64,000 bases of DNA from Burkholderiales bacterium (GTDB lineage Bacteria; Pseudomonadota; Gammaproteobacteria; Burkholderiales; SG8-39), in NCBI GenBank assembly GCA_035310985.1, contig DATGDH010000037.1, positions 37,382 through 101,381 on the forward strand, read 5' to 3'. The notes under the pieces are model-generated. The model was not told the origin of the DNA. It saw only the letters and a list, made by a program, of their open reading frames with translations, and searched no databases. Made by a program: the position numbers and the translations under genes. This document shows positions 8,940-61,681 of this stretch, piece by piece (position 1 is the stretch's first letter; the number at the start of each line of letters is the position of its first letter).

Positions 8940-9039
8940 GCGCGCATTATCGCCTGAAAGCGGGCGCCGGGTTGATTTCGATCAAGCCCCGCTGTCGGCG
9001 CAGCGGCAAGATTCGCTGACTTCCTAAAGGAGGACGAAC

Positions 9040-15992: not shown

Positions 15993-16825
15993 GCCGTTTG
16001 CGCCGTGAGCGCTTCGGCGCTCAGCATGATCACCTCGATTTCCTGGGTGATCTCCTCCTGGCGCGAAGCGTTCAGGCGCCGGGCGAGGTTTGCAGTGATC
16101 TCGTCCAGGCGCCTGAGCGCCCCTTCCATCTGCTCGAGCCGCCTGCGGTTCTCCGCGATCAGCGACACCGAGAAGGCCTCCTGCAGCGACATCAGGAGCG
16201 CCTGCTCGAGCAGCCCGGCGAAGAATTCCGGCGGCGCGAGCGTGAGGCGCGGCGCGTAGGCGCGCGGGCGCAGCGGCCGCTCGGGCAGCGGCAGCGGCGC
16301 GATCGTGCGCGTCAGCGGCCCCGAGCCGTCCGGACTCTGGTACACGGCCTTGACGTGCAGCGGCCCGGGCGGAGCGGCGCGTTGCACGCGCTCCAGCTCC
16401 GCGGCCACGCGCTGCAGCACCGCCGGAAGCTCCTCGGCGACGTTCGCGCCCGCGACAAGGCCGCCGCCGTCCGCTTCCTCGAGCCGGTCGGCGAGCCGCG
16501 CGCCGACCGCCACCAGCCGCTCGCCGCGCGCGCGCACCGCGCGTGCCTCGGCTTCCAGCGCCTCGTTGAACTCGCCGCAGAAGCCTCGCTCGGAGCCGAT
16601 GACGATGCATACCGTCGCCGCGGGCGCGGCCTCGCCGGGAGGCGCGTGAAAGCACAGGAAGTCGGCCGCCGCGCGCTCGATCGTCGCCATCGCGCGGCGC
16701 TGGTGCTCGAGCAGCCCGGCGAGCGCGCGCAGCTCCATCAACGCGATGTTCTTCATCGCCGAGAGGATGGCGCGCACCTCGCGCAGGCCCGCGAGCCTGC
16801 CGGCGAGCTGGTGGCGCCGCGTCAT
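15989..16825 (-). CDS. atpG: N-type F1Fo ATPase gamma subunit
   Basis: Start [31 protein letters not shown], with ATGA overlap on the atpA stop (16822-16825). C-terminus [19 protein letters not shown]. Last gene of the operon. Confidence 0.8.
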
Positions 16826-18303
16826 GCGGGCAGGCCCCCGACCCAGCCTGCCGCCGCCGCGCTCCAGGATTCGCGCGCGTCTTCGAGCGACAGCGCGCCG
16901 GCGCGCGCGCCGGCGAACAGCCGCTCGAGCGCGGTCTCGAGCGCCTTGTCGTCCAGACCCTCGAAGCGCCGGTCGTTGAAGGCAACCAGCCAGGCGAGCT
17001 GGCACTCCGGCGGCAGCGGGCGCAGCGGCTCCTGCTTGAGCACGCGGCGCAGCAGCCGCCCGCGCGCCAGGCGCGCCTGCAGGCCCGCCTCGAGGCGCGA
17101 ACCGAAGCGCGAGAACATCTCCAGCTCGAGAAACTGCAGGTAGTCGAGCTTCATGCTCGCCGCCTCGCGCTTGATCGCGGCGGGCTGCGCCTTGCCGCCG
17201 ATGCGCGACACCGAGCGGCGCACGTCGATCGCCGGCAGCTGCCCGGCGGCGAACATGCGGCGGTCGAAGTACACCTGCCCGTCGGTGATCGAGATCAGGT
17301 TGGTCGGGATGTAGGCGGCAATCTCGCCCTGCTCGGTCTCGACGATCGGCAGCGCGGTCATGCTGCCTCCGCCGTGCGCGGCGTCCAGGCAGGTGGAGCG
17401 CTCGAGCAGGCGCGAGTGCAGGAAGAACACGTCGCCGGGATAGGCCTCGCGCCCCGGCGGGCGCCTGAGCAGCAGCGACAGCTCGCGGTAGATGCGCGCG
17501 TGCGTCGACAGGTCGTCGTACACCACGAGTGTCTGCCGGCCCGCCTCCATCCAGGCCTCGGCGACCGCGCAACCGGCGAACGGCGCCAGGTACTTCAAGC
17601 CCGGCCTGGCGGTCGCCTCCGCCACGACGAGCGCGCTGTATTCGAGCGCACCACCGGCGCGCAGCGTCTCGATGACCGCGGCGACCGTCGAGCGCTTCTG
17701 GCCGATCAGCACGTACACGCAGTTCACCCCGCGCCCCTTCTGCGCCAGCACCGTGTCGAGCGCGAAGCTGGTCTTGCCGGTACCGTTGTCGCCGATCAGC
17801 AGCTGTCGCTGCCCGTGGCCGATCGGAATCATGCTGTCGGCGATGCGGTTGCCGGTGTAAAGCGGCTTGTTGACGAAGTCGCGCGCCAGGATGCGCGGCG
17901 ACGGCCTCTCGAGCGCTCGGCGCTCGGTGGCGCGCGGCCGCACGCCGCCGTCGAGCGGCTGGCCGAGCGGATCGACCACGCGGCCGAGCAGAGCGTCGCC
18001 GACGCCGAGCGCGAGCCTCTGCCCGGTGAGCGCCGCCGGCGCGCCCGCGCGCAGCCCGGGCGCCTCCTCGAGCAGGATCGCGCCGATGCGCTCGGGCGCG
18101 AGGTGGAACACGAGCGCCGTGCTGCCGTCGTCGGTGCGCAGCAACTCTTCCATCCCCGCCGACGGCAGGCCCTCGATCCACGCCACGCCGTCGCCTACGG
18201 AGAGCACGCGACCGCGCTCGCCCATGCGCAGCGCGAGGCGGTAGTCGCGCAGCCGCTCGGCACGGCGCGCGAGGAGCGGCCGCTCGAGCGCCTCAGGCGG
18301 CAC
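16822..18303 (-). CDS. atpA: N-type F1Fo ATPase alpha subunit
   Basis: P-loop [30 protein letters not shown] near the N-terminus. I place the start at GTG 18303, 8 nt downstream of GGGAGG (18317-18312). The upstream part of the track ORF overlaps atpF. Confidence 0.85.
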
Positions 18304-19042
18304 GCGCGGCACCTCCCGCGAACACGCGCAGCTCGTCGCGCAGGTTCGCCTGGAGCAGCCAGGGCCCGACCGCGACACAAAGCCCGGCAACCAGGGCTTC
18401 GTCCTGCGCGTACTCGGCGCGGCACTCGATGCGCAGGCGCTCGGAGAGCGCGCGCACCAGGCGCGCGCGCGCGGCCTCGGACAGCAGGTGCGCACTCGTC
18501 ACGCTCACGCGCGCGCCGGCGGCGCGCGCCGCCGCGGCGAGCGGGTCGATGCGCTCGGGCGGCCAGCCGGCCAGGTCGGCGGCGAAGACCTCCACCAGGC
18601 GCTCGTCGAGCGCCGGGTCGGCGACGCGCCCGAGCAGCTGCGCGGCGAACGAGCTCGCCTGCTCGAGCGCCTGCTGCTCGGTGTCGCGCTTCCAGTCGGC
18701 TTCGCGCTTCGCCTGCAGTGCCGCGAGCCGGTCGCGCTCGCGCTCGACCGTCTGCGCGACGTCCGCCAGCCCCCGCGCGCGCAAGGCCGCGAGCTCGGAG
18801 TCGAGGGCCGAGCGCGCCTTGAGCCGCTCGCGCTCCCAGTCCGCGAGCCTGCCCTCGAACTGCGCCCGCAGGCGCTCGGCCTCCTCGCGTACGGCCCTGG
18901 CGTCGGCCATCGACTTGTCGATCGCGGCGCGGCGCTTGTCGATCGCCGCGAGCACCGGGCGATAGAGGAACCTGTGCAGGATCCACACCAGCACGACGAA
19001 GTTGACCAGCTGCAGAACGAAGGTGGTGGCGTCGATCTGCAT
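18293..19042 (-). CDS. atpF: N-type F1Fo ATPase b subunit, long form (249 aa)
   Basis: N-terminal TM helix [23 protein letters not shown], then a long charged coiled coil. An extra C-terminal ~90 aa is present ([14 protein letters not shown]...). No separate delta gene in the operon. Confidence 0.75.
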
Positions 19043-19046
19043 GGCG

Positions 19047-19313
19047 TCACTTGAGCAGGAACTCGAGCAGCGGGTTGCGGAACAGCACGATCAGCACGAT
19101 CACCAGCACGTAGATCGCCAGCGACTCGATCATCGCCAGGCCGATGAACAGCGTGCGCGTGACGGCACGCTCCGATTCGGGCTGGCGCGCGATCGCGTCC
19201 AGCGCCTGCGTGATCGCGCGCCCCATCGCCACGGCGGGCAGCATCACGCCGATGGCCATCGCCAGCAGCGCGCCGGCAGTGGATACGATGACGAGCAGTC
19301 CGGTGGCGGTCAT
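19047..19313 (-). CDS. atpE: N-type F1Fo ATPase c subunit (88 aa)
   Basis: MTATGLLVIVSTAGALLAMAIGV...ARQPE...LFIGLAMIESLAIYVLVIVLIVLF. A hairpin of two TM helices with the carboxylate E in helix 2. ATGA overlap with the atpB stop. Confidence 0.85.
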   Translation of the reverse strand: MTATGLLVIVSTAGALLAMAIGVMLPAVAMGRAITQALDAIARQPESERAVTRTLFIGLAMIESLAIYVLVIVLIVLFRNPLLEFLLK

Positions 19314-19996
19314 GATTTCGACTCCTTTCTTTCCTTGGTGAGCTGTTGGGACTGGATGCCGCCGGCGATGTACACCAGCGCGAGCATGCCGAAGATGTAG
19401 GCCTGCACCAGCGCCTCGACCACGTGCAGGAGCAGGATGGGCACCGGCACCAGGAAGCCCGCGACGAGCAGCACCAGCAGCGCCGCCATCTCGAGGCTGG
19501 CCATGTTGCCGAACAGCCGCACCGCCAGCGCGACGGTGCGCGACAGCTCGCTCATCACATGGAACGGGAACAGGAGCGGGCTCGGCGAGAGGTAGTGCCG
19601 CAGGTAGTCGCGCCAGCCCTCGGCGCGCACGCCGTACCAGTGCACCGACAGGAACACCAGGATGGCGAGCGCCGCTGTGAGCGACAGGTCGCCGGTCGGC
19701 GAATGCAGCCCCGGCACGATGCCGGCCAGGTTGGCCACCACGAGGAACACCCACAGCGTGCCGACGAAAGGCACGAGCATGCGCGGGCGCTGCGGAAACA
19801 CCGCGGCGATCGAGCTCTCGATCGCCAGCACCACGCCTTCGAGCACCGTCTGCAACGCGCCGGGCCGCTCGCCGAGCGCGCGCGTCGCAGCCAGGCTGAA
19901 CAGCGCGAGCGCGAGCATGATGCCCCAGGTGGTGACCACCGCGGCGCTGACGCCGAACGGGCCGACGTGGAACAGGATCTCCGACGTTTCCATCAC
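19310..19996 (-). CDS. atpB: N-type F1Fo ATPase a subunit
   Basis: 228 aa, polytopic. Conserved Arg region LSRTVALAVRLFGNMAS. Start is GTG 19996 (GTGA overlap) or ATG 19993 (TGATG overlap) relative to the atpQ stop. Confidence 0.85.
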   Translation of the reverse strand: MMETSEILFHVGPFGVSAAVVTTWGIMLALALFSLAATRALGERPGALQTVLEGVVLAIESSIAAVFPQRPRMLVPFVGTLWVFLVVANLAGIVPGLHSPTGDLSLTAALAILVFLSVHWYGVRAEGWRDYLRHYLSPSPLLFPFHVMSELSRTVALAVRLFGNMASLEMAALLVLLVAGFLVPVPILLLHVVEALVQAYIFGMLALVYIAGGIQSQQLTKERKESKS

Positions 19997-20276
19997 TGCC
20001 GCTCGCGCACGAAGAGGTACACGTTGACGGCGCCCAGCGCCACGCCGGCGAGCAGCAGGCTGATCGTCCAGCGTACCGAGTAGCCCGCCAGCTGGTCGTC
20101 GATCCAGCGGCCGAGGTAGCCGCCGCCGAGCACCGGCAGGATGAACAGCAGCGCCAGCGTGCCGAGGTAGGCGGTCTGCGCGAGCAGGCCCGGGCGCTCG
20201 CGCTCTGCGCGGCGCATGCGCTCGGCCTGGCGCTCCACCGTCTCGCGCAGCTTCGGTTCGCGCTCGGCGTTCGCCA

Positions 20277-20277
<1 letters not shown>
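19993..20277 (-). CDS. atpQ: AtpQ/AtpZ-like small membrane protein of N-ATPase operons
   Basis: Motif GGGYLGRWIDDQLAGYSVRWTISLLLAGVALGAVNVYLFVRE fits the ATPase_gene1-type pattern. I prefer ATG 20277, which shares 1 nt with the atpC stop (TGATG), over the track start at 20298. Confidence 0.65.
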
Positions 20278-23759
<3,482 letters not shown>

Positions 23760-23825
23760 GCATTCAGTCTGCGCCGCGCCCCCTGCGGGGAGTTGATCTA
23801 ACTCAAGAAAGCGCCCCCGTGACCG

Positions 23826-25972: not shown

Positions 25973-26004
25973 AACAATACGCCTCCTCCCGGCATTACGT
26001 ATCC

Positions 26005-29000
26005 GTGAAACCCGAGTCCCTCCCCGCCGAAGCCATCGTCGTACGCGGCGCCCGGCAGAACAACCTGAAGAACCTCTCGCTCGCGATCCCCACGGGGGAG
26101 CTGGTGGTGGTGACCGGGGTGTCGGGCTCGGGCAAGTCTTCGCTGGTCTTCGACACGCTCTACGCGGAGGGCCAGCGGCGCTACGTCGAGACCTTCAGCC
26201 CGTACGCGCGCCAGTTCCTCGACCGCATGGACAAGCCGCAGGTCGACGCGATCGAGGGCATTCCGCCGGCGATCGCCATCGACCAGACCAACCCGGTGCG
26301 CACCTCGCGCTCGACGGTCGGCACGATGACCGAGCTGAACGACCACCTCAAGCTCCTGTACGCGCGCGCCGCGACGCTCTTCTGCCGCGGCTGCGGCAAG
26401 CCGGTGACGCGCGACACGCCCGACTCGGTCTACCGCGTGCTCGAGGAACGCTGCGCGGCGCACGGCGACCCGCGCCTCGCGGTGACCTTTCCCGTGCCGG
26501 TGCCGAAGAGCTTCACGGAGAGCGAGATCGAGCAGCTGCTCGAGCGCCAGGGCTACACGCGCATCCACGCGCGCGCCAAGGGCCTGCTCGAGGTGACGCA
26601 GGACCGCTTCCGCCTCTCGGACGCCGGCCGCGCGCGCGCCATCGAGGCGCTCGAAGCCGCGCTGCGCGTCGGGCAGGGAAAGGTCAACGTCTATCTCGAG
26701 GACGGTACGGCGTGGCGCTTCTCGTCCGACCTGCACTGCCCGGACTGCGACATCCATTACTCCGAGCCGACGCCCGCGGCGTTCTCGTTCAACTCGCCGC
26801 TCGGCGCCTGCGAGACCTGCCGCGGCTTCGGGCGCGTGATCGGCGTCGATTTCGGTCTGGTGATCTCGGACGAAGCGAAGTCCCTGCGCGAGGGCGCGGT
26901 GCGCCCCTGGCAGACCGCGAGCTTCAAGGAATGCCAGGACGACCTGGTCAAGTACGCGAAGAAGCGCGGCATTCCGCTTGATACGCCCTTCCGGGAACTG
27001 AGCTCTTCCCAAAAGGAATGGATTCTCGAAGGAGAAAGCGACTGGGTCAGCTGGAAAAAGAGCTGGCCGGGCACCTGGTACGGCGTGCGGCGCTTCTTCA
27101 AGTGGCTCGAGACGAAGGCCTACAAGATGCACATCCGCGTGCTCTTGTCGAAGTACCGCGCCTACACCGAGTGCACGGCCTGCGGCGGCACGCGCCTCAA
27201 GCCGGACGCGACGCTGTGGCGCATCGGCCCGCACTCGATCCACGACCTGATGCTGCTGCCGATCGGGCGCGTGCGCGAGTTCATGGACGCATTGCGCCTG
27301 CCCGCGCCGGCGGACGAGGCGACCGAGCTGCTGATGGCGGAGATCCGCGCGCGGCTCAGGTTCCTCTGCGAGGTGGGCCTCGCCTACCTCACGCTCGACC
27401 GCCAGTCGCGCACGCTCTCGGGCGGCGAGGTGCAGCGGATCAACCTCACCACCGCGCTCGGCACCTCGCTCGTCAACACGCTGTTCGTGCTCGACGAGCC
27501 CTCGATCGGGCTGCACCCGCGCGACATGGGGCGCGTGATCGAGGTGATGAAGCGCCTGCGCGACGCCGGCAACTCGCTCGTGGTGGTCGAGCACGATCCG
27601 CAGATCATGTTCGCCGCCGACCGCATCCTCGACATGGGGCCCGGCCCGGGCGAGCGCGGCGGCGAGGTGGTGTTCTTCGGTGCGCCGCAGGAATTGAAGC
27701 AGCGGGGCACCCTGACGGCCGATTACCTCTCAGGGCGAAAACGCGCCGGCGAAAGTTTCGTTCAATCTGCCCCCCAGAAGGATTTCATTCGTGTCGAAGG
27801 GGCAAGCGAACACAATCTGAAAGACCTGGACATGTCGATCCCGCTGCAGCGCCTCGTCTGCGTGACAGGCGTGTCGGGATCGGGCAAGTCGACGCTGGTC
27901 GAGGACGTGCTCTGCCGCGCCCTGCTCAAGGCGAAGGGCAAGCCGACCGAGGCGCCCGGCGCGCACCGCGCGCTCTCCGGCGCCGAGAAGATCTCCGAGG
28001 CGGTGCTGGTCGACCAGTCGCCGATCGGCAAGACGACGCGCTCCAACCCGGCGAGCTACGTCGGCGCCTGGGACGCGATCAGGATGCTCTTCGCGCGCGC
28101 GCCGCTCGCGCAGGAGCGCAAGTACACGCCCGGCACCTTCAGCTTCAACGCCGGCAACGGCCGCTGCCCGACCTGCGGCGGCAACGGCTTCGAGCACGTC
28201 GAGATGCAGTTCCTGTCGGACGTGTACCTGCGCTGCCCGGACTGCGACGGCAAGCGGTTCCGCCCCGAGGTGCTCGAGGTCGCGCTGCGCGGCAGGAGCA
28301 TCTCCGACGTGCTCGAGATGACCGTGTCCGAGGCGCTCGCCTTCTTCGCCGGCGAGCGCGAGGTCGAGGCGCGCCTCGCGCCGCTCGCCGAGGTGGGGCT
28401 CGAGTACCTGCGCCTCGGCCAGCCGGTGCCGACGCTCTCGGGCGGCGAGGCGCAGCGCCTCAAGCTCGCCGGCCACCTGCAGCAGGGACCGGGCGCGAAC
28501 AAGCTGTTCCTGTTCGACGAGCCGACCACCGGGCTGCACTTCGACGACGTCGCGAAGCTCCTGCGCGCCCTGCGCCGCCTGCTCGCCGCCGGCCACTCGC
28601 TGGTAGTGATCGAGCACAACCTCGACGTGATGCGCGCCTCCGACTGGCTCATCGACCTCGGGCCCGAGGGCGGCGAGGCCGGCGGCGCGCTGGTGTGCGA
28701 AGGCACGCCCGAGCAAGTGATGCGCCACGCGACTTCGCACACCGCGCGAGCCCTGAGGGAATACGAAAAAGCGTTCACTGAACAGAAACCCCAAACCCGC
28801 GAACCCCAAGCCCGATACCTCGGGCATGCCATCCGCATCCACCACGCGCGCGAGCACAATCTGAAGAACATCGACGTCGAGATCCCGCGCAACCGCTTCA
28901 CCGTGGTGACCGGCGTGTCGGGCTCCGGAAAATCGACGCTCGCCTTCGACATCCTGTTCGCCGAAGGACAGCGCCGCTACCTCGAGTCGCTGAACGCCTA

Positions 29001-31425
29001 TGCGCGCCAGTTCGTGCAGACCGCCGCGCGCCCGGACGTGGACGCGATCTGGGGCATCCCGCCGACGGTGGCGATCGAGCAGCGCACCAGCCGCGGCGGC
29101 AGGAAAAGCACGGTCGGCACGCTGACCGAGATCCACCACTTCCTGAGGCTGCTCTTCGTCAAGCTCGGCACCCAGCACTGCCCGGACTGCCGCGTGCCGA
29201 TCGAGCCGCAGAGCGAGGACGCGATCGCCGCGCGCCTGCTGCGCGAGTACCGCGGCCAGCGCATCGGCCTGCTCGCGCCCCTGGTGACGAACCGCAAGGG
29301 CGTGTACACCGACCTCGCCAAGTGGGCGAAGGCGAAGGGCTACGCGAGCCTGCGCGTAGACGGTGCGTTCCTGCCGGTCGATCCCTTCCCGCGCATCGAC
29401 CGGTTCAAGGAGCACAACATCGAGCTGCCGGTGGCCGACCTGCGCGTCGCACCCGAGAACGAGCGCGCGCTGCGCGCCGCGCTCGCCACCGCACTGGAGC
29501 TCGGCAAGGGCACGGTGCAGGTGCTCTCGGACCTCGACGCGCTGGTGAAGGCCGCGCAGAAAGCGAAGGGCCTGGTCGAGATGGTGCTGCGCCAGGCGCG
29601 CTATTCGACCAAGCGCGCCTGCCCCTCCTGCGGGCGCAGCTTCGCCGAGCCCGATCCGCGCCTGTTCTCCTACAACTCGAAGCACGGCTGGTGCCCGGCC
29701 TGCTACGGCACGGGGCTCAAGCTCGCCGAGGTCGGCTGGACGGACGAGCGCGCGCGCACCGGCACGGAGGACCACGTGCTCGACTCGTGGATCGAGTGGC
29801 TCGAGGTCGACGAGCCCTGCCCGGCCTGCGCGGGCCGGCGGCTCAACCCCGAGGCGCTCGCGGTCACCTGGCGCGGAAAGTCGATCGCCGACTACGGCGC
29901 GCAGCCGGTCGCGGATCTCGCAACGCAATTCGCCGGCGTTGCCCTCGAAGGCCGCGAGCGGGAGATCGCGCGCGACCTCGTCGCCGAGCTGACGAGCCGC
30001 CTCGGCTTCCTCGGCGAGGTCGGCCTCGGGTATCTCTCGCTCGACCGCTCGGCGCCGACGCTCTCGGGGGGCGAAGCGCAGAGGATCCGGCTGGCCGCGC
30101 AGCTCGGCTCGAACCTGCGCGGCGTGTGCTATATCCTGGACGAGCCGACCATCGGGCTGCATGCGCGCGACAACCGCATCCTGCTCGACGTGCTCGAGAA
30201 GCTCGAGGCGAAGGGCAACACGCTGGTGGTGGTCGAGCACGACGAGGAGACGATCCGCCGGGCGCACCACGTGCTCGACCTCGGCCCGGGCGCGGGCAAG
30301 CTCGGCGGGCGGGTGATCGGCGAGGGCACCGCCGAGGCGCTGATGGCGCTGCCCGATTCGGTCACCGGACGGTTCCTCGCGCATCCGCTCAGGCATCCGC
30401 TGCAGCCGCGCCGTCCCGTCAGCGAGAGAGCGGCTTCCGTTCAAATCAAGAAAGCCTCTCTGCACAATCTGGCGCAAATCGACCTGCGCGTGCCGCTCGG
30501 GCGGCTGGTGTGCGTGACCGGCGTGTCGGGCTCGGGCAAGTCGACGCTGGCGCGCGACGTGCTCTTGAGGAGCCTGCAGGAAGGCGCGCCGGTCGGCTGC
30601 AGGGAGGTGAAGGGCGCGCTCGAGCGCGTGCTCGAGGTCGATCAGACGCCGATCGGCAAGACTCCGCGCTCCTGTCCCGCGACCTACGTCGGCTTCTGGG
30701 ATTCGGTGCGCAAGCTGTTCGCCGACACGAGCGAGGCGCGCATGCGCGGCTGGACGCCTAGCCGCTTCTCGTTCAACACCAAGGGCGGCCGCTGCGAGTC
30801 CTGCGAGGGCCAGGGGCTGAAGACGATCGAGATGTCCTTCCTGCCCGACGTCAAGGTGGCCTGCGAAGCCTGCGGCGGCGCGCGATTCAACCCCGAGACG
30901 CTCGCGCTGCGCTGGCGCGGCAAGACGATCGGCGAGGTGCTCGCCATGAGCGTCGACGAGGCGCTCGCGTTCTTCGCCGCGCACCCCTCGATCCACAAGG
31001 CGCTGGGGCTGCTGCAGGACGTCGGCCTGGGCTACCTCACGCTCGGCCAGCAGAGTCCGACGCTCTCGGGCGGCGAAGCGCAGCGGATCAAGCTGGTCAC
31101 CGAGCTCTCCAAGGTGCGCAGCGAGACGCGCACGCTGTACGTGCTCGACGAGCCGACCGTCGGGCTGCACATGGCGGACGTGGAGAAGCTGATCCGCGTG
31201 CTGCACCGGCTGGTCGACGCGGGCAACAGCGTGCTGGTGATCGAGCACAACCTGGACGTGATCGCCGAGGCCGACTGGATCGTCGACCTGGGCCCCGAGG
31301 GCGGCGCGGGCGGCGGGCGCATCGTGTTCCAGGGCGCGCCCGAGGACGCCGCGCAAGCCGACTCGCACACCGCGCGCGTGCTGTCGGCCTTCCTCGCCGA
31401 GCGCGGCGCGCATGCTCGACATTGA
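26005..31425 (+). CDS. tandem UvrA-UvrA fusion protein (1806 aa, four ABC ATPase modules, six Cys4 zinc modules)
   Basis: GTG start. Four intact GVSGSGKS Walker A motifs at 26116-26139, 27868-27891, 28912-28935 and 30520-30543. Four LSGGE(V/A)QR signatures. Second UvrA-like unit begins near 28800 after the linker [18 protein letters not shown]. Confidence 0.9.
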
Positions 31426-32434
31426 CGGCGCATACGGCGAAGGCGGCGGCCAGCTGCTGCGCACCGCGATCACGCTCGCCGCGGTCACCGGCCAGGCGCT
31501 GCGCATGCGCGACATCCGCGCGCGCCGCAGGAAGCCCGGCCTCGCCGCGCAGCACCTCACCGCGGTGCGCGCGGTCGGCGCGCTGTGCGATGCGCGCATC
31601 GAGGGCCTCGCGCTCGGCGCGCGCGAGCTGGTGTTCGCGCCGCGCGCGCTGCGCGGCGGAGAATTCCGCTTCGACGTGGGCACCGCGGGCAGCGTGACGC
31701 TCGTGCTGCAGGCGCTCGTGCCGGCGATGCTCGCGGGCGGCGCCGCCTGCCGCGTGCTCGTTACCGGCGGCACCGACGTGCGCGCCGCGCCGCCGCTCGA
31801 CTATTTCCGCGCGGTGCTGCTCGGCCTGCTCGCGCGCATGGGCGCTCGCCTGCGGCTCTCCGCGCGCCGGCGCGGCTACTTCCCGGGCGGCGGCGGCGAG
31901 GTCGAGCTCGCGGTCGAGCCCGGTGCGCGCCTGCGGCCGTTCACGGCCGCGGCGCCGGGCCGGCTGCTCGCGCTGCGCGGCGCCGCGCACGTCGGCAACC
32001 TGCCGGCGCACATCGCCGAGCGCATGCGCGCGGCGGCGCTCGCAATCCTGCCGCGGGGGGCCGCGATCGACCTCGCCGTGCTCGGCGAGGACGGCGCGCA
32101 GGGCCGCGGCGGCGCGATCGTCGCCTGGGCCGAGACCGAGGCGAGCGTGCTCGGCGCGGGCGAGGTGGCCGAGCGCGGCGTGCCCGCCGAGACGCTCGGC
32201 GAGCGCGCCGGCTCCGAGCTGAGCGCGGACCTCGCCGCGGGCGCCTCGCTCGACGTGCACGCCGCGGACCAGCTGCTCGTCTACCTCGCGCTTGCCGAGG
32301 GGCCGTCCATCTTTACGACGCGCGCGCTGTCGAGCCATGCGCGCACCGCGATGTGGCTGATCGAGCAGTTCCTGCCCGTGCGCTTCGCCGCCGCCGCGCG
32401 GGGGACAAATCTCATGCGGGTCGAAGTGCGATGA
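31412..32434 (+). CDS. rtcA: RNA 3'-terminal phosphate cyclase RtcA
   Basis: 340 aa. Motifs [48 protein letters not shown] and [13 protein letters not shown]. Its ATG lies 14 nt inside the end of the UvrA fusion gene. Confidence 0.9.
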
Positions 32435-33768
32435 CGCGCCGGCGAATCCTCATCATGGGTGCCGCGGGGCGCGACTTTCACGACTTCAACGTCGTGTACC
32501 GAAACGATCCCGCCTGCGAGGTCGTGGCGTTCACCGCCGCGCAAATTCCTGGCATCGCTGGGCGGCGCTACCCGCCGTCGCTCGCCGGCCCGCTCTATCC
32601 GCAGGGCATTCCGATCGTCGCCGAGGACGAGCTCGAGGCGCGCATCCGCGCGGACTCCGTCGACCTGGTCGTTCTCGCCTATAGCGACCTCGCGCACGTC
32701 GAGGTGATGCACCGCGCCTCGCGCGCGCTCGCCGCGGGTGCCGACTTCGCGCTGCTCGGCCCGCGCAGCACCATGGTGCGCGCGCGCCTGCCGGTGATCG
32801 CGGTCACCGCCGTGCGCACCGGCGCCGGCAAGTCGCCGCTCGCGCGTTGGCTCGCGGCCCGGCTGCGCGCGCGCGGCCTGCGCGCCGCCGTGGTGCGCCA
32901 TCCGATGCCGTACGGCGACCTGGAGCGCCAGGTGGCGCAGCGCTTCGCAACGCGCGCCGACCTCGACGCGGCGCGGTGCACGCTGGAGGAGCGCGAAGAG
33001 TATGAGCCGCACATCGCCGCCGGCGGCACCGTCTACGCGGGCGTCGACACCGCGCGCGTAATTGCGCTCGCCGAACGCGAGTCGGACATCATCCTGTGGG
33101 ACGGGGGCAACAACGACTTCCCCTTCGTGCGCCCCGGCCTGCACATCGTTGTGGTCGACCCGCTGCGCGCCGGCGACGAGACGCGGCATCACCCGGGCGA
33201 GACTTGCTTGCGCACAGCTGACGTCGTCGTGGTGTCCAAGGTGGACTCGGCGAGCACCGAGGCGGTCGCCGCCGTGACGCGCAGCGCGAAGGCCGCCAAT
33301 CCGCGTGCGCCGGTGCTGCGCGCCGCGCTCGAGATCCGGCTGGACGATCCGGCCGCGGTGCGCGGCAAGCGCGTCCTGGTGGTCGAGGACGGCCCCACGG
33401 TCACGCACGGCGGCATGCCCTACGGCGCAGGCTACCTGGCCGCGCAGCGTGCGGGCGCCGCGGAGATCGTCGATCCCCGGGCTTCCGCAGCGCAGCAAGT
33501 CCGCGCAGTCTACGACCGGTATCCGCACCTCGGGCGTGTCTTGCCGGCGCTGGGCTATTCCGACGAGCAACTGGAGGCCCTGCGCCGCACGATTGAGGAC
33601 GCCGGCGCCGACGCCGTCGTGGCCGCCACGCCGGTCGACTTCGGACGCTTGATGGACTTGCACACGCCGGTCGTGCGCGCGCGCTACGAGTTCGTCGATC
33701 TCGGCACCCCCGGGCTCGGAAAAATCGTCGACGAATATCTCGACGGCCTGACCCGGACGTGTCAATAA
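32431..33768 (+). CDS. COG2403-type P-loop NTPase (cyclic 2,3-diphosphoglycerate synthetase-like / predicted GTPase)
   Basis: ATG 32431 overlaps the rtcA stop (ATGA), in frame with the tail of track ORF 31585..33768. Motifs ILIMGAAGRDFHDFN, Walker A VTAVRTGAGKS and ILWDGGNNDFPF. Confidence 0.7.
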   Translation: MTRRRILIMGAAGRDFHDFNVVYRNDPACEVVAFTAAQIPGIAGRRYPPSLAGPLYPQGIPIVAEDELEARIRADSVDLVVLAYSDLAHVEVMHRASRALAAGADFALLGPRSTMVRARLPVIAVTAVRTGAGKSPLARWLAARLRARGLRAAVVRHPMPYGDLERQVAQRFATRADLDAARCTLEEREEYEPHIAAGGTVYAGVDTARVIALAERESDIILWDGGNNDFPFVRPGLHIVVVDPLRAGDETRHHPGETCLRTADVVVVSKVDSASTEAVAAVTRSAKAANPRAPVLRAALEIRLDDPAAVRGKRVLVVEDGPTVTHGGMPYGAGYLAAQRAGAAEIVDPRASAAQQVRAVYDRYPHLGRVLPALGYSDEQLEALRRTIEDAGADAVVAATPVDFGRLMDLHTPVVRARYEFVDLGTPGLGKIVDEYLDGLTRTCQ

Positions 33769-33801: not shown

Positions 33802-34263
33802 ATGATCACACTGACCGTAAACGGCAGGAAAAGACAAGTGAACGCCGAGCCCGACACGCCGCTGCTTTGGGTGCTGCGCGACACGCTCGGCATGACCGGC
33901 ACCAAGTTCGGCTGCGGCGCGCAGCTCTGCGGCGCCTGCACCGTGCATCTCGACGGCAAGCCGGTGCGCTCCTGCGGCACGCCGGTTTCGGCGGCCGCCG
34001 GCAAGCACATCACGACCATCGAGGCGATCGACAAGACTGAGGCCGGCCGCAAGATCCAGGCGGCCTGGGCCGAGCTCGACGTGCCGCAATGCGGCTACTG
34101 CCAGTCGGGCCAGATCATGAGCGCGACCGCGCTGCTCGCCGAGAAGCCGCATCCGACCGACGCCGACATCGACGCCGCGATGGAAGGCAACGTATGCCGT
34201 TGCGGCACCTATCCCCGCATCCGCGCGGCAATTCACAAAGCCGCCGGCACCAAGGGAGCCTGA
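33802..34263 (+). CDS. (2Fe-2S)-binding small subunit of an IorAB/aldehyde-oxidoreductase-type molybdoenzyme, copy 1
   Basis: ATG 33802 follows GGGAGGGG. The product is 153 aa, the same length as copy 2. Motifs [12 protein letters not shown] and [12 protein letters not shown]...CRCGTY. Confidence 0.85.
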
Positions 34264-34265
34264 CC

Positions 34266-36383
34266 ATGAACCGACTCAAGAATCCCTCGCGCCGCACGTT
34301 CCTCAAGTCCGGCGCCGCGGCCAGCGGTGCGCTGGTCATCGGCGTCGCTCTGCCGGACGCGATGGCCAAGATGTCTGTGACCACGTCGATGCCCAATGCG
34401 TGGATCCGCATCGGCAGCGATAACAGCGTCACCATCCTGTGCGCGCGCTCGGAGATGGGACAAGGCGTCGTAATGGCGATGCCGACGCTCGTCGCAGAAG
34501 AACTCGAGGTCGATCTGAACAAGATTAAGGTCGACTTCGCGCCGCCCGGAGAAGCCTACATCAACAGCATGCTCGGCGCGCAGCTCACCGGCGGCTCGAC
34601 CTCGGTGCGCGACGGCTGGGAGAAGCTGCGCATCGCGGGCGCGCAGGCGCGCTCGATGCTGATCCAGGCCGCAGCCGACAAGTGGCACGTGGACGCGTCC
34701 AAGTGCCGTGCGCACAACGGAGTAGTGAGCGGGCCCGGCGGCAAGAAAGCGAGCTACGGTCAGCTCGCGCAGGCGGCCTCCAAGCTCACGCCGCCGAAGG
34801 AGGTGAAGCTCAAGCCGCCTTCCGAGTTCCGCTACGTCGGCAAGCCGCTGAATCGCCTGGACACCGCTGCCAAGATCCGCGGTAAGGCTGAGTACGGCAT
34901 CGACGTGCGGCTCCCGGGCATGCTGTATGCCTCGCTCGCGCAGTGCCCGGTGCTCGGCGGCAAGGTGGTGAGCTTCGATGCTGAAGAGGCGAAATCGATG
35001 CCGGGGGTCAAGCACGTGGTCCAGATCCCCGACGGAATCGCGGTCGTGGCGGACAGCTGGTGGCGCGCGAAGAAGGCGCGCGACACGATCAAGATCCAGT
35101 GGGACGAGGGCGCGAACAAGACGCTCAGCACCGAGTCGGCGTTCGCGGGGCTCGCGCAGGCGATGGCCCAGCCCGCGGCGCAGATCCGCAAGCAGGGCGA
35201 CGTCGACGCGGCGATGAAGACGGCCGCCAAGACGCTCGAGGCGACTTACGAGATGCCGTTCCTGTCGCACTCGCCGATGGAGCCGATGAACTTCACTGCG
35301 GACGTGCGCAAGGACTCGGCAACGCTGATCGGCTCGATCCAGTTCCAGCAGGCGGCGCTCGGCACGGCGGCCGCGATTACCGGCCTCAAGCCCGAGCAGA
35401 TCACGGTCCGCACCACGTTTCTCGGCGGTGGCTTCGGCAGGCGCATCGATTATGACTACGTCGCCCAGGCGGTGCTGATCTCGAAGGCGATCGGCGCTCC
35501 CGTCAAGCTGGTGTGGACGCGCGAAGACGACATGACGCACGACTTCTACCGCCCGGCCAGCCTGCACAAGATGGCGGGCGCGCTGGACGCCGAGGGCAGG
35601 CCGGTCGCGCTCAGCCTCAAAATGAGCTCGCCGTCCGTGACCGCGCGGCTCATTCCGCCGCTGGTGAAGGACGGCGTCGATCCGCTGATGACCGAGGCGA
35701 TCCTCGTGCCCTACGACGTCGCCAACCAGTCGGTCGGCACCGTGATCCACGACACCGGGCTGCGCGTCGGCTACCTGCGTTCCGTGTCGCACGCGCTCAA
35801 CATCTTCGCCAACGAGTCCTTCATCGACGAGATGGCGCATGCCGCGGGCAAGGATCCCTACGAGTACAGGCGCGCCCTGCTCGAGAAGCAGCCGCGGCAC
35901 AAGCGCGTGCTCGAGGCGGTCGCCCGCGAGGCGGGCTGGGGCAAGCCCCTGCCCGCGGGCCGCGCGCGCGGCATCGCGCTGATGGAGGGCTACGACACCT
36001 ACATGGCGCAGGTGGCCGAGGTGTCGGTCGAGGACGGCAAGATCAAGCTGCACCGGGTGGTGGTGGCGGTCGATGCGGGCCCGATGGTCAACCCCAACAT
36101 CGTGCGCCAGCAGATCGAGGGCAACATCGTGTTCGGGCTCACCGCGCTGAAGTACGGCAACATCACGCTGAAGGACGGCAGGGTGGAGCAGACCAACTTC
36201 GACAAGTACCTCATGGTGCGCATGCCGGAGTGCCCGGTGGTCGAGACCCACCTCGTGCCGAGCGGCGACAAGCCGGGCGGTATCGGCGAGCCGGCGACCG
36301 CGCTGCTCGGGCCGACGGTGGCGAACGCCGTGTTCGCGCTGACCGGAAAGCGGCTGCGCAAGATGCCGTTGAGCATTGCTTAG
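34266..36383 (+). CDS. molybdopterin-binding large subunit (IorB / xanthine dehydrogenase family), copy 1, Tat signal
   Basis: ATG 34266 lies 2 nt after the small-subunit stop. Tat motif [19 protein letters not shown]. Motifs [33 protein letters not shown] and GGIGEPAT. Confidence 0.85.
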
Positions 36384-36401
36384 CAGCCCTTCCAAGCCCC
36401 G

Positions 36402-36434
36402 GCAAGAAGCCCGCTCGCGCGGGCTTCTTGCTTT
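36402..36434 (+). terminator. rho-independent terminator-like hairpin after iorB copy 1
   Basis: 13-bp perfect stem gcaagaagcccgc / gcgggcttcttgc with a 4-nt loop, followed by TTT. It begins 19 nt after the stop. Confidence 0.6.
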
Positions 36435-37191
36435 GCGGGCCCTCCTCCTCATCGCGCTCGGCTGCACGGCGCTCGCCGCGCGCGCGCAAGATTACGAACG
36501 CGAGAAGCGCTGGGCGGACCAGATCCTCGCTTCGCTCATGGTGGGCGACGCGGTGTGGCTGCAGCAGAAGAACGGCCACCGTTTTCTCGGCCTGTACACC
36601 GTCGCGCAGAACCCGCGCGGCGCGGTCATCGTCGCGCACGGGCGCGGCTGGAGCCCCGACTACGGCCTCTACGGAATCCTGCGCAGCAAGCTCGCGGACG
36701 CGGGCTACACGACGCTCGCGATCCAGCTCCCGGTGCTGCCGAGCACCGCCATCCTGGGGCTGTACGTGCCTCTCTACCCCGACGCGCGCGAGCGCATCCA
36801 GCTCGCAGTCGACTTCCTCAAGGCAAAGGGCTACCGCAAGATCGCCATCGTCTCGCACAGCCTAGGCGCGACGATGGCCAATCAGTACCTGATCCGCACC
36901 GACGATACCAGCGTCAAGGCCTGGGTGTTCGTCAGCATCATCCAGGGCCTGGAGGAGATGTACAGGATCAAGATTCCGGTAATGGACGTCTACGGTGAGA
37001 AGGACTGGACGGTCACGCGCTGGGGCGGCCCCGAGCGGCGCAAGGAGATCGCCAAGGTGCCCGGCTCGGAGCAGGTCGTGATCCCGGGCGCCGAGCACTT
37101 CTACGAGGACCGCGAAGACGATCTGGTAAAAGCGATCGTGCCGTTTCTCGACCGCAGCCTGCGGAAGGCCGAGCCCGATGCCGTGAAATAG
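36433..37191 (+). CDS. secreted alpha/beta-hydrolase-fold protein
   Basis: Signal peptide RALLLIALGCTALAARAQ. Nucleophile elbow VSHSLGA. The start is uncertain: TTG 36433 is preferred because it lies just past the terminator hairpin. The track start TTG 36376 lies inside iorB. Confidence 0.55.
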   Translation: MRALLLIALGCTALAARAQDYEREKRWADQILASLMVGDAVWLQQKNGHRFLGLYTVAQNPRGAVIVAHGRGWSPDYGLYGILRSKLADAGYTTLAIQLPVLPSTAILGLYVPLYPDARERIQLAVDFLKAKGYRKIAIVSHSLGATMANQYLIRTDDTSVKAWVFVSIIQGLEEMYRIKIPVMDVYGEKDWTVTRWGGPERRKEIAKVPGSEQVVIPGAEHFYEDREDDLVKAIVPFLDRSLRKAEPDAVK

Positions 37192-37309
37192 TTGGCTGCT
37201 CCGTGTCACGCATCGTGCGCGGCGTGATGCAGTTAACTGCGAAGTTTCCTTCCCAGGTGCACGCTCCACACGGCGAAGACCGCATTTCGCGGTACCTGTG
37301 GAAGGAACC

Positions 37310-37855: not shown

Positions 37856-37885
37856 GCAAAGCCTCCACCGGTAAGACCCCGCATG

Positions 37886-37912
37886 AAAAGGCCCGCCCCT
37901 GGCGGGCCTTTT
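37886..37912 (+). terminator. rho-independent terminator after the glycine-zipper gene
   Basis: aaaaggcccgcc-cct-ggcgggcctttt: a 12-bp stem with a GC-rich core and T-run, flanked by an A-run, so potentially bidirectional. Confidence 0.75.
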
Positions 37913-38020
37913 CAATTTGAGGTGTCGGGCCGTGACAACAGCCTTTGCAGAACGAAACGCCGCGCGGCAAGCAGGTCATTTCCATTTCATAATCCGCTTG
38001 CCACTTTTCTCGGAGCTCCC

Positions 38021-38482
38021 ATGGTCACTCTGTACGTGAACGGCAAGCACATGCAGCTCGACGTCGCGGACGACACGCCGCTGCTTTGGGTGCTGCGTGA
38101 CGAGCTCGGCCTGACCGGCACGAAATTCGGCTGCGGCATGGCGCTGTGCGGCGCCTGCACGGTGCAGCTGAACGGTGCGGCGGTGCGCTCGTGCTCGACT
38201 CCGGTTTCCGCCGCGGCGGGCAAGCACGTCCTGACGGTCGAAGCGGTCGACAAGACGCGCCCCGGGCGCGCGGTGCAGGCCGCGTGGATCAAGCACGACG
38301 TGCCGCAATGCGGCTACTGCCAGAGCGGCCAGATCATGAGCGCCACCGCGCTGATCGCCGCGAACAAGTCGCCGAGCGACGCGGACATCGACGCTGCGAT
38401 GAGCGGCAACATCTGCCGCTGCGGCACCTACAACCAGATCCGCGCCGCGATCAAGGATGCGGCCGCGGCGCTAAAGGGCTGA
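38021..38482 (+). CDS. (2Fe-2S)-binding small subunit of an IorAB-type molybdoenzyme, copy 2
   Basis: ATG 38021 ([10 protein letters not shown]). The track extension from 37883 runs through the terminator and is rejected. Motifs [12 protein letters not shown] and [12 protein letters not shown]...CRCGTY. Confidence 0.85.
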
Positions 38483-38491
38483 GGAGGCGAC

Positions 38492-40630
38492 ATGGGCACG
38501 GCATTCAAGGCCTCGCGCCGCAGCTTCCTCAAGGGCTCCGCCGCCGCGAGCGGCGGCCTGGTCATCGGCTTCGTGCTGCCCGCTGGCGGGCGCCTCGCCG
38601 AGGCCGCCGCGCCTTTCGCGCCGAACGCATACCTGCGCATCGCCGCCAACGGGCGCGTGACGGTGGTGTGCGGCCTGTCGGAGATGGGCCAGGGCGTGCT
38701 GACCGCGATCCCGATGCTGGTCGCCGAGGAGCTGGACGCCGACTGGGCGGAAGTCGGCGTCGAGCAGGCGCCGGTCGACAAGGCGTTCAACAATCCGGTA
38801 TTCGGCATGCAGGCGACCGGCGGCTCGACCTCGGTGCGCGGGCACTGGGAGCCGATGCGGAAGGCGGGGGCCGCCGCGCGCGAGATGCTCGTCGCCGCGG
38901 CCGCGCAAACGTGGAAGGCGAGCCCGGGAGACTGTCGCGCAGCGAAGGGCTTCGTGATCCACAGGAGCGGCAAGAAGCTCTCCTACGCGCGCCTTGCCGC
39001 GCGAGCGTCGAGGCTGCCGGTGCCGGCAAACCCGAAGCTGAAGGACCCGAAGGACTTCACGATCCTCGGCCAGGGCCTGCACCGGCTCGACACGCCGCCG
39101 AAGGTGAACGGCAGGGCGAAGTTCGGGCTCGACGTGCGCCTGCCCGGCATGCTGATCGCAGTGATGGCGCGCCCGCCGGTGCCCGGCGGCAAGGCGCTGT
39201 CGGTGGACGATTCCAAGGCAAAGGCGATCAAGGGCGTGCGCCAGGTGATCCAGATCCCGCAGGGCGTGGCGGTGCTCGCCGACGGCTACTGGGCCGCCAA
39301 GCAGGGACGCGACGCGCTCGAGATCAAATGGGACGACGGCCCGAACGCAGGCCTCGGCTCGAGCGATATCTCGAAGATGCTCGCCGAGGCGACCACCGTT
39401 CCAGCCAAGGTCGGCCGCAACGACGGCGACGTCGCCACGGCGGGCGGCACGAAGGCGATCGAGTCGCACTACGAGGCGCCGTACCTCGCGCACGCCTGCA
39501 TGGAGCCGATGAACTGCACCGCCTGGGTGAAGCAGGACGAGGTCGAGATCTGGGCCGGTACGCAATCGCAGGGCCCGAGCCAGGGAATCGTGTCGCAGGT
39601 GAGCGGCGTCGCGCCCGGCAAGGTGAAGATCCACACGATGTACCTCGGCGGCGGCTTCGGCCGGCGCTTCGCGCCCGATTTCGCGGTCGACGCGACGCTG
39701 CTGTCCAAGATGTCGGGCAAGCCGGTGAAGCTCGTCTACGCGCGCGAGGACGACATGCGCGCCTACTTCTACCGTCCGGTGTCCGCCACGCGCTTCACTG
39801 GCGCGCTCGACGCGTCGGGCCGGCCGGTGGCGTTCAGCGCGCGCGTCGCCTCGCCCTCGATCATGGAAGGCTCGGGCTTCATGAAGCTGCCGCCGAACGG
39901 CGTCGATCAGTTCGCGGTGGAGGGCGTGCAGGACCTGCCCTACGACATCCCGAACGTGCGCGTCGAGTACTCGCGCGTCGAGCCGGGCGTGCAGGTGTGG
40001 TTCTGGCGCTCGGTGGGGCACTCGCAGAACATCTTCTTCAGCGAGAGCTTCGTCGACGAGCTGGCGCACGAAGCGGGCAAGGATCCGTTCGAGTTCCGGC
40101 GCGACCTGCTCGGCAAGCAGCCGCGCTACAAGGGCGCGCTCGAGCTCGCCGCGGACAAGGCGGGCTGGGGCGCCCCGCTGCCGCCGGGCGTGTTCCGCGG
40201 TATCGCGGTGGCGCAGTCCTTCGGCAGCTACGTCGCCGAGGTGGCGGAGGTATCGGTGGGCGACGACGGCGCGGTCAAGGTGCACCGCATCGTCGCCGCG
40301 GTCGACTGCGGCCGGACCGTCAACCCCGAGATCATCCGGCGCCAGATCGAGAGCGCGATCGTATACGGGTTGTCGGCCGCGCTATACGGGAAGATCACCC
40401 TGAAGGACGGCAAGGTCGAGCAAGGCAATTTCGACTCCTATCCGGTGCTGCGCATGAACGAGATGCCCAAGGTCGAGGTGTACATCGTGCCGAGCACGGA
40501 GAACCCGGGCGGCATCGGCGAGCCCGGGCTGCCGGCAGCCGCGCCCGCGGTGACCAACGCGATCTTCGCCGCGACCGGCAAGCGCATCCGCCGGCTGCCG
40601 ATCGACCGCGACCTGCTGAAGAAGGCCTGA
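38492..40630 (+). CDS. molybdopterin-binding large subunit (IorB / xanthine dehydrogenase family), copy 2, Tat signal
   Basis: 712 aa. Tat motif [19 protein letters not shown]. Motifs [33 protein letters not shown] and GGIGEPGL. Confidence 0.85.
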
Positions 40631-61602: not shown

Positions 61603-61681
61603 GCTAGAATGCGCCCCCGGCCGTCCCGTCGGCCGAGAACCTGACGTAATTGATCCACATTAAAACCCTGAAGGAACGCAC

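Follow-up and report, generated by a model that had tools for sequence, protein, structure and literature searches.

Three overlapping genes in a 64-kb stretch of DNA from a Burkholderiales bacterium (the window; GC content ~70%) encode a double-length, or tandem, UvrA, an RNA 3'-terminal phosphate cyclase (RtcA) and a P-loop protein of family COG2403. All three gene families are already known and the novelty of the cluster is low. The third protein is to be compared with ArcE (TK2200) of Thermococcus kodakarensis, a member of the ArcE-ArcB-ArcC pathway (PMC11032458; PMC13260591), which catalyses the reaction Arg + ADP + Pi <-> citrulline + NH3 + ATP and so yields ATP (PMC11032458). A second described relative is archaeal cyclic 2,3-diphosphoglycerate (cDPG) synthetase (8ORK/8ORU), in which the K145/R146 dyad of the P-loop binds 2,3-diphosphoglycerate (PMC10690619). 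RtcA is familiar from the rtcBA genes of Escherichia coli with their sigma-54 activator RtcR. Canonical class I UvrA is a homodimer (2R6F, 3PIH, 3ZQJ, 9GXK). The class II paralogues (Ecm16, DrrC, Deinococcus UvrA2) are UvrA-like ATPases with accessory roles outside the core of nucleotide excision repair, and some of them displace DNA-bound drugs without UvrB and UvrC (PMC9328131).

The window shares features with each of these systems and departs from each. Its third gene encodes a P-loop protein of ArcE size (~445 aa), but there is no arcB or arcC within the 64 kb and the gene sits between rtcA and genes for a 2Fe-2S/molybdopterin oxidoreductase. Archaeal cDPG synthetase is the best full-length structural match and has the same two-domain P-loop architecture. 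However, the identity is low, the K145/R146 dyad aligns with Thr130/Gly131 and the window host is no hyperthermophilic methanogen. As in E. coli, rtcA encodes a bona fide RtcA (TIGR03399 equivalog) with its catalytic motifs, but here it is probably translationally coupled to a uvrA paralogue, with no RtcB, RtcR or sigma-54 promoter in the window. Moreover, the usual partners of RtcA in Burkholderiales are Prim-Pol and an MJ1316-domain protein, not UvrA. The UvrA has the ATPase and zinc-module motifs of class I and one recognisable UvrB-binding domain, but fuses two units in a single chain. Class IIa UvrA is single-length and wholly lacks the UvrB-binding domain (PMC9328131), whereas the window protein is tandem, keeps one such domain and has no biosynthetic gene cluster nearby.

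A first-pass annotation had taken the three genes for an undescribed nucleic-acid damage, end-processing or toxin-removal pathway. Two results point elsewhere. The third gene very likely encodes an ArcE-type arginine synthetase, a small-molecule enzyme of arginine/citrulline metabolism, and the triple linkage is confined to one narrow Burkholderiales clade. On balance we favour the view that the cluster is a lineage-specific, functionally mixed operon with no dedicated pathway. The identities of the first two genes, both overlaps, the varying content of the slot that separates uvrA from the third gene and the family-wide gene contexts are established.

Identity of the third gene product

The third protein is 100% identical to a protein from a Burkholderiales metagenome-assembled genome (MAG). 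Its relatives carry the name 'predicted GTPase' or 'cyclic 2,3-diphosphoglycerate synthase', and only weak P-loop hits were found in Pfam/NCBIfam. An AlphaFold2 model was obtained with a predicted local distance difference test score of 81. Foldseek placed cDPG synthetase at the top (8oru, E 3.6e-19, 16% identity), with LpxK next (4ehy). The same LpxK structure, 4EHY, was superimposed on TK2200 by the authors who described ArcE (PMC11032458). The traits reported for ArcE/TK2200 are homologues named 'putative GTPase', low similarity to cDPG synthase, an LpxK-4EHY-like ATP-Mg pocket and a location near arcB and arcC (PMC11032458). In GTPase naming, low similarity to cDPG synthetase and LpxK(4EHY)-like fold the window protein matches this description. 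The likeness to TK2200 is drawn from the published description and from family context, and the activity of the window protein is predicted.

ArcE is described from Beta-/Gammaproteobacteria, Acidobacteria, Chloroflexi, Nitrospira, Bipolaricaulis, Caldisericum, Intrasporangium relatives, cyanobacteria and Desulfurococcales (PMC11032458; PMC13260591). The third-gene loci of our survey come from the same taxonomic groups. This survey was anchored on the third gene and took a single genome from each GTDB species. It gave more than 596 loci, the best 80 of which were used (51-86% identity, Bacteria and Archaea). Partner genes were sought around the loci with tblastn and 80 further metagenome loci were added. 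The survey of the family comprised 165 loci, and carbamate kinase was counted in the 135 with enough downstream flank.

Carbamate kinase is the dominant neighbour of the family (44/135). For a cluster of 40 loci the median gap to it is 31 nt, and the two genes mostly share a strand. Downstream there is a carbamoyltransferase gene in 20 loci, and 11 have arginyl-tRNA synthetase (ArgRS) upstream. Operons confirmed with Pfam run arcE-like, carbamate kinase, ornithine carbamoyltransferase (OTCase) and class-III aminotransferase, or arcE-like, carbamate kinase and amino-acid permease. Carbamate-kinase operons of the family can be seen for example at L010:9953-13725 and L053:9998-15565, and at ~44 other loci. 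Among 50 members linked to carbamate kinase, 120 alignment columns are invariant (>=96%). The window protein keeps 119 of these, the sole change being Y207T, and there is therefore no sign of changed function in the window ArcE.

Family-wide context, fold, annotations and taxa thus match ArcE (PMC11032458), and not the cDPG-synthetase-like enzyme acting on phosphate ends or closing a ring that had first been proposed. The accompanying statement that bacterial members of COG2403 are uncharacterised is out of date at family level, ArcE having been described (PMC11032458).

Two other identities were tried and rejected. For cDPG synthetase, structural alignment gives 15-16% identity (8oru/8ork), the P-loop K/R pair is not kept and the genomic context is wrong. 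In an alignment anchored on the P-loop, which is of low confidence outside GK[ST], GTGKRVGKT of cDPG synthetase faces AVRTGAGKS. K145/R146 then aligns with T130/G131 of an invariant VRTGxGKS motif, which argues against cDPG synthesis. A phmmer search gave a partial match to 9sxb only (E 3e-6, residues 209-362), and no NCBIfam model matches. A MobB/molybdenum-cofactor role was suggested by the molybdenum enzyme encoded downstream and by a weak MobA/MobB hit (E 8.5e-4). It has no Foldseek support, and the molybdenum-enzyme neighbourhood is limited to the window clade. In the plasmid collection, the third gene was found only on three haloarchaeal plasmids.

Conservation of the linkage and origin of rtcA

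Among the best 80 species-level loci, all three genes were found together only in L001, a close Burkholderiales relative. L011 contains tandem UvrA and arcE in divergent orientation, ~200 nt apart, and L073 contains an unrelated RtcA (37% identity) 2.7 kb from arcE. Neither UvrA nor RtcA was found near the third gene in any of the 80 metagenome loci, and ~155 other loci of the family contain neither partner. The linkage from which the first-pass annotation argued is thus essentially confined to one narrow clade, an outcome that the annotation itself had named as counting against its pathway. A search of the literature for an rtcA/uvrA/COG2403 linkage found nothing relevant.

Further relatives, listed here with the percentage identity of their third gene, reveal that the slot between uvrA and the third gene is variable. 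It may hold RtcA alone, PRTase and RtcA (L081, 83%), or RtcA followed by a five-gene LIV-type ABC-transporter operon on the opposite strand (L082, L083 and L088; 84, 80 and 91%). A MlaC-domain gene replaces RtcA in L084/85 (75%). In L086 (69%) the slot is empty and uvrA runs straight into the third gene, with a 4-nt uvrA/arcE overlap, a strong Shine-Dalgarno sequence before arcE and unrelated flanks. L087 (68%) has no UvrA at all. The rtcA and third genes cannot share a transcript in L082, L083 and L088, because the opposite-strand operon lies between them. In a neighbour-joining tree the window clade is monophyletic and its RtcA-bearing members form an inner subgroup. States with and without the ABC-transporter insert are intermingled on the arcE tree. 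This suggests that the insert was repeatedly gained or lost, or that recombination took place. The inserted operon itself, divergently upstream of arcE (L082:4209-8838, L083:1337-5966, L088:659-2110), fits an amino-acid-metabolic role of arcE.

In the window, the three genes lie where the first-pass annotation had placed them, with both overlaps as it described. The rtcA start lies inside uvrA (14-nt overlap), and an ATGA joins the start of the third gene to the stop of rtcA (4-nt overlap). All three have a GC content at third codon positions of 0.93-0.94, which fits a ~70% GC genome and marks them as genuine genes. No recognisable Shine-Dalgarno sequence was found upstream of rtcA or of the third gene, and this fits translational coupling of both. 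Identical 14-nt and 4-nt overlaps are found in L001, L081, L082 and L083. The ATGA belongs to the third gene's own start, since in relatives the RtcA, MlaC or UvrA gene upstream ends at the same TGA. Overlapping start and stop codons are by themselves weak evidence for a common pathway. The earlier proposal of one transcript with coupled translation of the three genes is plausible from these signals, with the correction that the co-directional cluster does not stop at 33768.

The RtcA scores 395.6 bits with TIGR03399 (cutoff 250) and is matched by both Pfam RTC (PF01137) and RTC_insert (PF05189). Its translation contains the motif at residues 281-288 and SSH(309)ART. We take His309 to be the adenylylation site, equivalent by position to His309 of E. 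coli. Identity among its relatives falls from 78-94% within the clade to <=68%. The next-closest RtcAs (60-66% identity) lie in a recurrent module of Prim-Pol, RtcA and MJ1316-domain genes. All three of these RtcA-anchored loci (L170, L171, L172) are without tandem UvrA or arcE. The PRTase next to RtcA in L081 and the PRTase near RtcA in L170 are homologous, which suggests that rtcA came as part of a cassette.

The Prim-Pol/RtcA/MJ1316 module, together with Lactamase_B_2, is located at L170:1-17032, L171:7195-10589 and L172:7125-9304 in Burkholderiales/Betaproteobacteria. In L170 it is surrounded by an island of genes for RtcB, archease, CBS, a PRPP-synthetase-like protein, DLH, PRTase, PGA_cap, PolX, a DksA-like protein and class II ribonucleotide reductase. 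This gene content resembles hypoxia/dormancy regulons. A Nitrospirae MAG (L073:5637-17595) has on one strand arcE, a 79-aa open reading frame (ORF), PolX (pol-beta and PHP), RtcA, an FHA-trypsin protease gene and tandem Usp, with PRTase, an NMD3-like gene and a 4xCBS protein upstream. The PolX of this MAG shares 65% identity with that of the Burkholderiales island, which suggests that the island has been transferred.

The tandem UvrA and the surroundings of the cluster

The tandem UvrA (1806 aa) scores 2039 bits with the NF001503 equivalog model, in three matched stretches. It contains four ABC ATPase modules, with four Walker A (GVSGSGKS), four LSGGE and four LDEP motifs read in translation. 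The class I hallmarks, namely ABC ATPase modules with Walker A, signature and Walker B together with zinc modules, are thus present twice over. Half 1 (~residues 7-919) and half 2 (~residues 943-1800) each align full-length to solved UvrA structures (E 1e-240 or better). They are 39% identical to one another, with an insertion-domain gap, and are asymmetric. In half 1 the UvrB-binding region is divergent and unrecognised by Pfam, and the insertion domain is partly kept (UvrA_DNA-bind matches only 282-346, partially). Half 2 has a good UvrB-binding domain (PF17760, residues 1069-1174, the only match of Pfam UvrA_inter) and is missing ~100 aa of the insertion domain, its alignment skipping UvrA residues ~305-404. 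The protein therefore has one intact UvrB-binding and one partial insertion domain, and its layout is not the canonical single ~940-aa chain with both.

Orthologues of 60-68% identity are found in Ralstonia, Cupriavidus and other Burkholderiales. When the search was anchored on UvrA, 5/5 loci (Ralstonia, Cupriavidus and the metagenomic Burkholderiales L173-175) had no RtcA or arcE nearby. The L175 UvrA is closer to that of the window than the L086 UvrA is, and L175 shares the Band_7 left flank. When the UvrA junction was used as a protein query, all hits were short gene fragments from frameshifted assemblies, and three of them served as context anchors. A search of the literature on the function of tandem or 'class III' UvrA found nothing relevant, and the genome paper on Cupriavidus CH34 does no more than note a second uvrA2, located on the chromid. 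The tandem UvrA probably represents an accessory paralogue. Judged by the UvrA homodimer and by class II proteins such as Ecm16, it is most likely a covalent pseudo-dimer that senses DNA distortion.

The Chlamydia-type double-length UvrA was rejected as an identity (NF001885, 1183.9 bits against a cutoff of 3054). So was the MADS defence system, which is defined by an eight-gene mad operon in which MAD6, MAD7 and MAD8 must all be present, close to genes for a methylase, a kinase and a specificity subunit. The PADLOC hits to mad3 and mad8 reflect generic UvrA/ABC homology, and there are no other mad-type genes nearby. These profiles (PDLC04135 / PDLC04140, 504 and 241 bits against window 26005-31422) derive from HHpred/PDB remote homologues. 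They give very high scores to any UvrA-like ABC ATPase, and false defence-system calls are therefore possible. In L086 the tandem UvrA (L086:2744-9004) was called at 2086 aa, ~280 aa longer than that of the window, with extra internal sequence and a 44-codon tail running into the arcE ATGA. Elsewhere the gene is broken into 4-6 gene fragments (L081:2030-7299, L173:7530-13180, L174:7332-13045, L175:6381-13039). These are long-read metagenome assemblies, and the fragments may reflect either homopolymer/frameshift errors or real pseudogenes. Most hits of the junction region in protein databases are fragments of this kind.

The features of the cluster and its borders are collected in Table 1. Co-directional genes run on past 33768, at gaps of +33, +2 and -8 nt. 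The 2Fe-2S gene has a strong Shine-Dalgarno sequence (GGGAGGGG) upstream of its ATG and directly follows arcE in 8/8 members of the window clade. The molybdopterin-subunit gene has an AAGGGAG Shine-Dalgarno sequence and is kept across the clade. These two downstream genes are the constant arcE partners of the window clade (8/8 members). No terminator-like site was found on the + strand within the cluster before 37228, and the number of such sites in the region is no greater than expected from shuffled sequence.

Table 1. Features of the co-directional cluster and its borders, with positions in the window.
Feature	Position	Strand	Details
Divergent intergenic spacer, nfeD (-) / tandem uvrA (+)	25973..26004	.	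32 nt
Tandem uvrA	26005..31425	+	GTG start, TGA stop; 1806 aa
rtcA	31412..32434	+	ATG start; 340 aa; RNA 3'-terminal phosphate cyclase
arcE-type gene (earlier 'COG2403 / cDPG-synthetase-like')	32431..33768	+	ATG start, TAA stop; 445 aa
2Fe-2S subunit, aldehyde-oxidase/xanthine-dehydrogenase type (IorA-like)	33802..34263	+	Pfam Fer2_2 and Fer2; 33 nt after arcE
Molybdopterin-binding subunit (IorB-like)	34266..36383	+	~705 aa; Pfam MoCoBD_1 and MoCoBD_2; 2 nt after 2Fe-2S gene
DUF3530 / alpha-beta hydrolase gene	36376..37191	+	Pfam DUF3530 and Abhydrolase; 8-nt overlap with preceding gene; last of tight co-directional run
Terminator-like hairpin	37228..37241	+	First such site downstream of cluster; weak consensus match

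Upstream of uvrA, the nfeD, SPFH and phaC genes run divergently. The 32-nt spacing of nfeD and uvrA is also found in L084, a relative of 75% identity (L084:2929-2959). Because only 32 nt separate the divergent starts, the promoters of nfeD and tandem uvrA must sit in neighbouring coding sequence. No sigma-70 consensus, LexA box, FNR/Anr box or sigma-54 promoter was found in this spacer. Six-frame scanning of the 64 kb for an RtcB motif and for sigma-54 activator motifs (GAFTGA/ESELFG) found none, and the absence of RtcB and RtcR noted in the first-pass annotation stands. Motif scans likewise found no sigma-54 promoter (TGGCAC-N5-TTGC) or LexA box anywhere in the 64 kb, and Rfam gave no match in the whole window.

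FNR/Anr-type palindromes (TTGAT-N4-ATCAA) are enriched in the window, with 11 matches at <=2 mismatches against 3.2 expected. They include sites at 8972-8985, 23793-23806 and 61650-61663, that at 8972 being perfect and intergenic. A site with one mismatch directly precedes the phaC start, and the uvrA-rtcA-arcE cluster has no such site upstream. Two paralogous pairs of 2Fe-2S and molybdopterin-subunit genes (IorAB-like) are found in tandem, at 33802-36383 and 37883-40630. Between them lie the DUF3530 hydrolase gene and a glycine-zipper protein gene, and the duplication is kept in L081 and L082. A second-type F-ATPase operon is located at 16822-22039 on the - strand. Its gene order is unusual, beginning with beta and continuing through a small ORF, the a subunit and a b/delta-like fusion to a 557-aa alpha subunit, and resembles that of N-ATPase clusters.

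Readings of the cluster

As a lineage-specific mixed operon, the cluster would work as follows. Six co-directional genes, for tandem UvrA, RtcA, ArcE, the 2Fe-2S and molybdopterin subunits and the hydrolase, are probably co-transcribed from 26005 to ~37241. Translation of rtcA and arcE would probably proceed by termination-reinitiation coupling, which we propose because neither gene has its own ribosome-binding site. The tandem UvrA would be a DNA-binding ABC ATPase, an accessory sensor of DNA damage or of DNA-bound ligands, its pseudo-dimer offering one UvrB-docking and one insertion domain where the UvrA homodimer has two of each. RtcA is predicted to drive the ATP-dependent conversion of RNA 3'-phosphate to 2',3'-cyclic phosphate via a His-AMP intermediate. 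The third protein would interconvert arginine + ADP + Pi and citrulline + NH3 + ATP. As for the order of events, rtcA would have entered the variable slot between a pre-existing tandem uvrA and arcE, probably along with a PRTase gene.

Several points weigh against this reading. No carbamate kinase, carbamoyltransferase/OTCase or ArgRS gene was found in the 64-kb window, and the ArcE identity is itself drawn from context, fold and annotation. Tandem UvrA and arcE are adjacent in three contexts, namely the window clade, L086 with its different flanks and L011 in divergent orientation. This seems more than chance alone would give, and the linkage may have a selective reason. Moreover, genes of the RtcA island (PRTase, DLH, PGA_cap, Lactamase_B_2, Prim-Pol, PolX and RtcA) lie loosely near arcE in L016, L021 and L073.

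The last of these points bears on the alternative that survives best, in which the cluster belongs to a stress or energy-starvation maintenance island, its genes co-regulated for non-growing, hypoxic or damaged cells without forming a single pathway. The tandem UvrA would then serve DNA surveillance, RtcA would heal RNA ends and ArcE would supply ATP from arginine by substrate-level phosphorylation, as the ATP-yielding reaction of ArcE would allow (PMC11032458). Such islands can be seen around RtcA in L170, with RtcB, archease, CBS, PRTase/DLH, PGA_cap, PolX and class II ribonucleotide reductase, and on the single strand of L073, in the order arcE, small ORF, PolX, RtcA, FHA-protease gene and Usp. 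In L016 (the sister of the window clade), L021 and L029, arcE likewise has island genes at a distance of 2-7 kb. However, island genes occur at only ~8/165 arcE loci, a figure with no background frequency control, and the window has no Usp, CBS, RtcB or PolX gene. There is no FNR, LexA or sigma-54 site upstream of the operon, and tandem-UvrA loci elsewhere lie outside such islands. We regard this alternative as rather unlikely.

A specific partnership could link the tandem UvrA to ArcE, rtcA being a dispensable passenger. ArcE might then regenerate ATP locally for the four-site ABC ATPase, or might have a second, DNA-related role in this clade. This would account for the adjacency amid unrelated flanks in the window clade, L086 and L011, and for the observation that every UvrA-linked arcE is without its usual carbamate kinase neighbour. 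Yet the three cases could stem from one ancestral adjacency, and an opposite-strand operon can separate the two genes. All five tandem-UvrA loci found independently of arcE, including L175, have no arcE. Furthermore, ArcE in the UvrA-linked loci keeps essentially all family-invariant residues, with no sign of a new function. Such a partnership is highly doubtful. It is quite unlikely that the pair forms a real functional unit in which arginine-derived ATP supports DNA/RNA maintenance enzymes in non-growing or energy-limited cells; if it did, the tandem UvrA would be a covalent pseudo-dimer adapted to an energy-limited maintenance role.

A dedicated damage, end-processing or toxin-removal pathway, with the UvrA fusion sensing lesions and RtcA and the COG2403 protein acting on phosphate ends, is extremely improbable and already largely refuted by the survey of gene neighbourhoods. 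In its favour, the overlapping starts suggest co-expression, RtcA is intact, the cDPG-synthetase-like fold is a P-loop phosphotransfer scaffold and RtcA lies 2.7 kb from arcE in L073 with PolX between them. Against it, the third family is tied to carbamate kinase, OTCase and ArgRS across Bacteria and Archaea and matches a characterised arginine synthetase, the triple linkage occurs in few close relatives only and is interrupted in the closest, and the place of rtcA can be taken by MlaC or left empty.

A new nucleic-acid end-processing pathway, as first proposed, would have been notable. With the cluster read as a lineage-specific mixed operon, its interest lies mainly in the correction of the cDPG-synthase annotation and in the asymmetric tandem UvrA. 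The NCBI product name 'cyclic 2,3-diphosphoglycerate synthase' is probably a systematic misannotation in bacteria. Bacterial proteins so named, or named 'predicted GTPase' or COG2403, are very probably ArcE, and their neighbourhoods are to be read as amino-acid metabolism. Burkholderiales, moreover, carry an uncharacterised, asymmetric double-length UvrA that is worth biochemical study in its own right.

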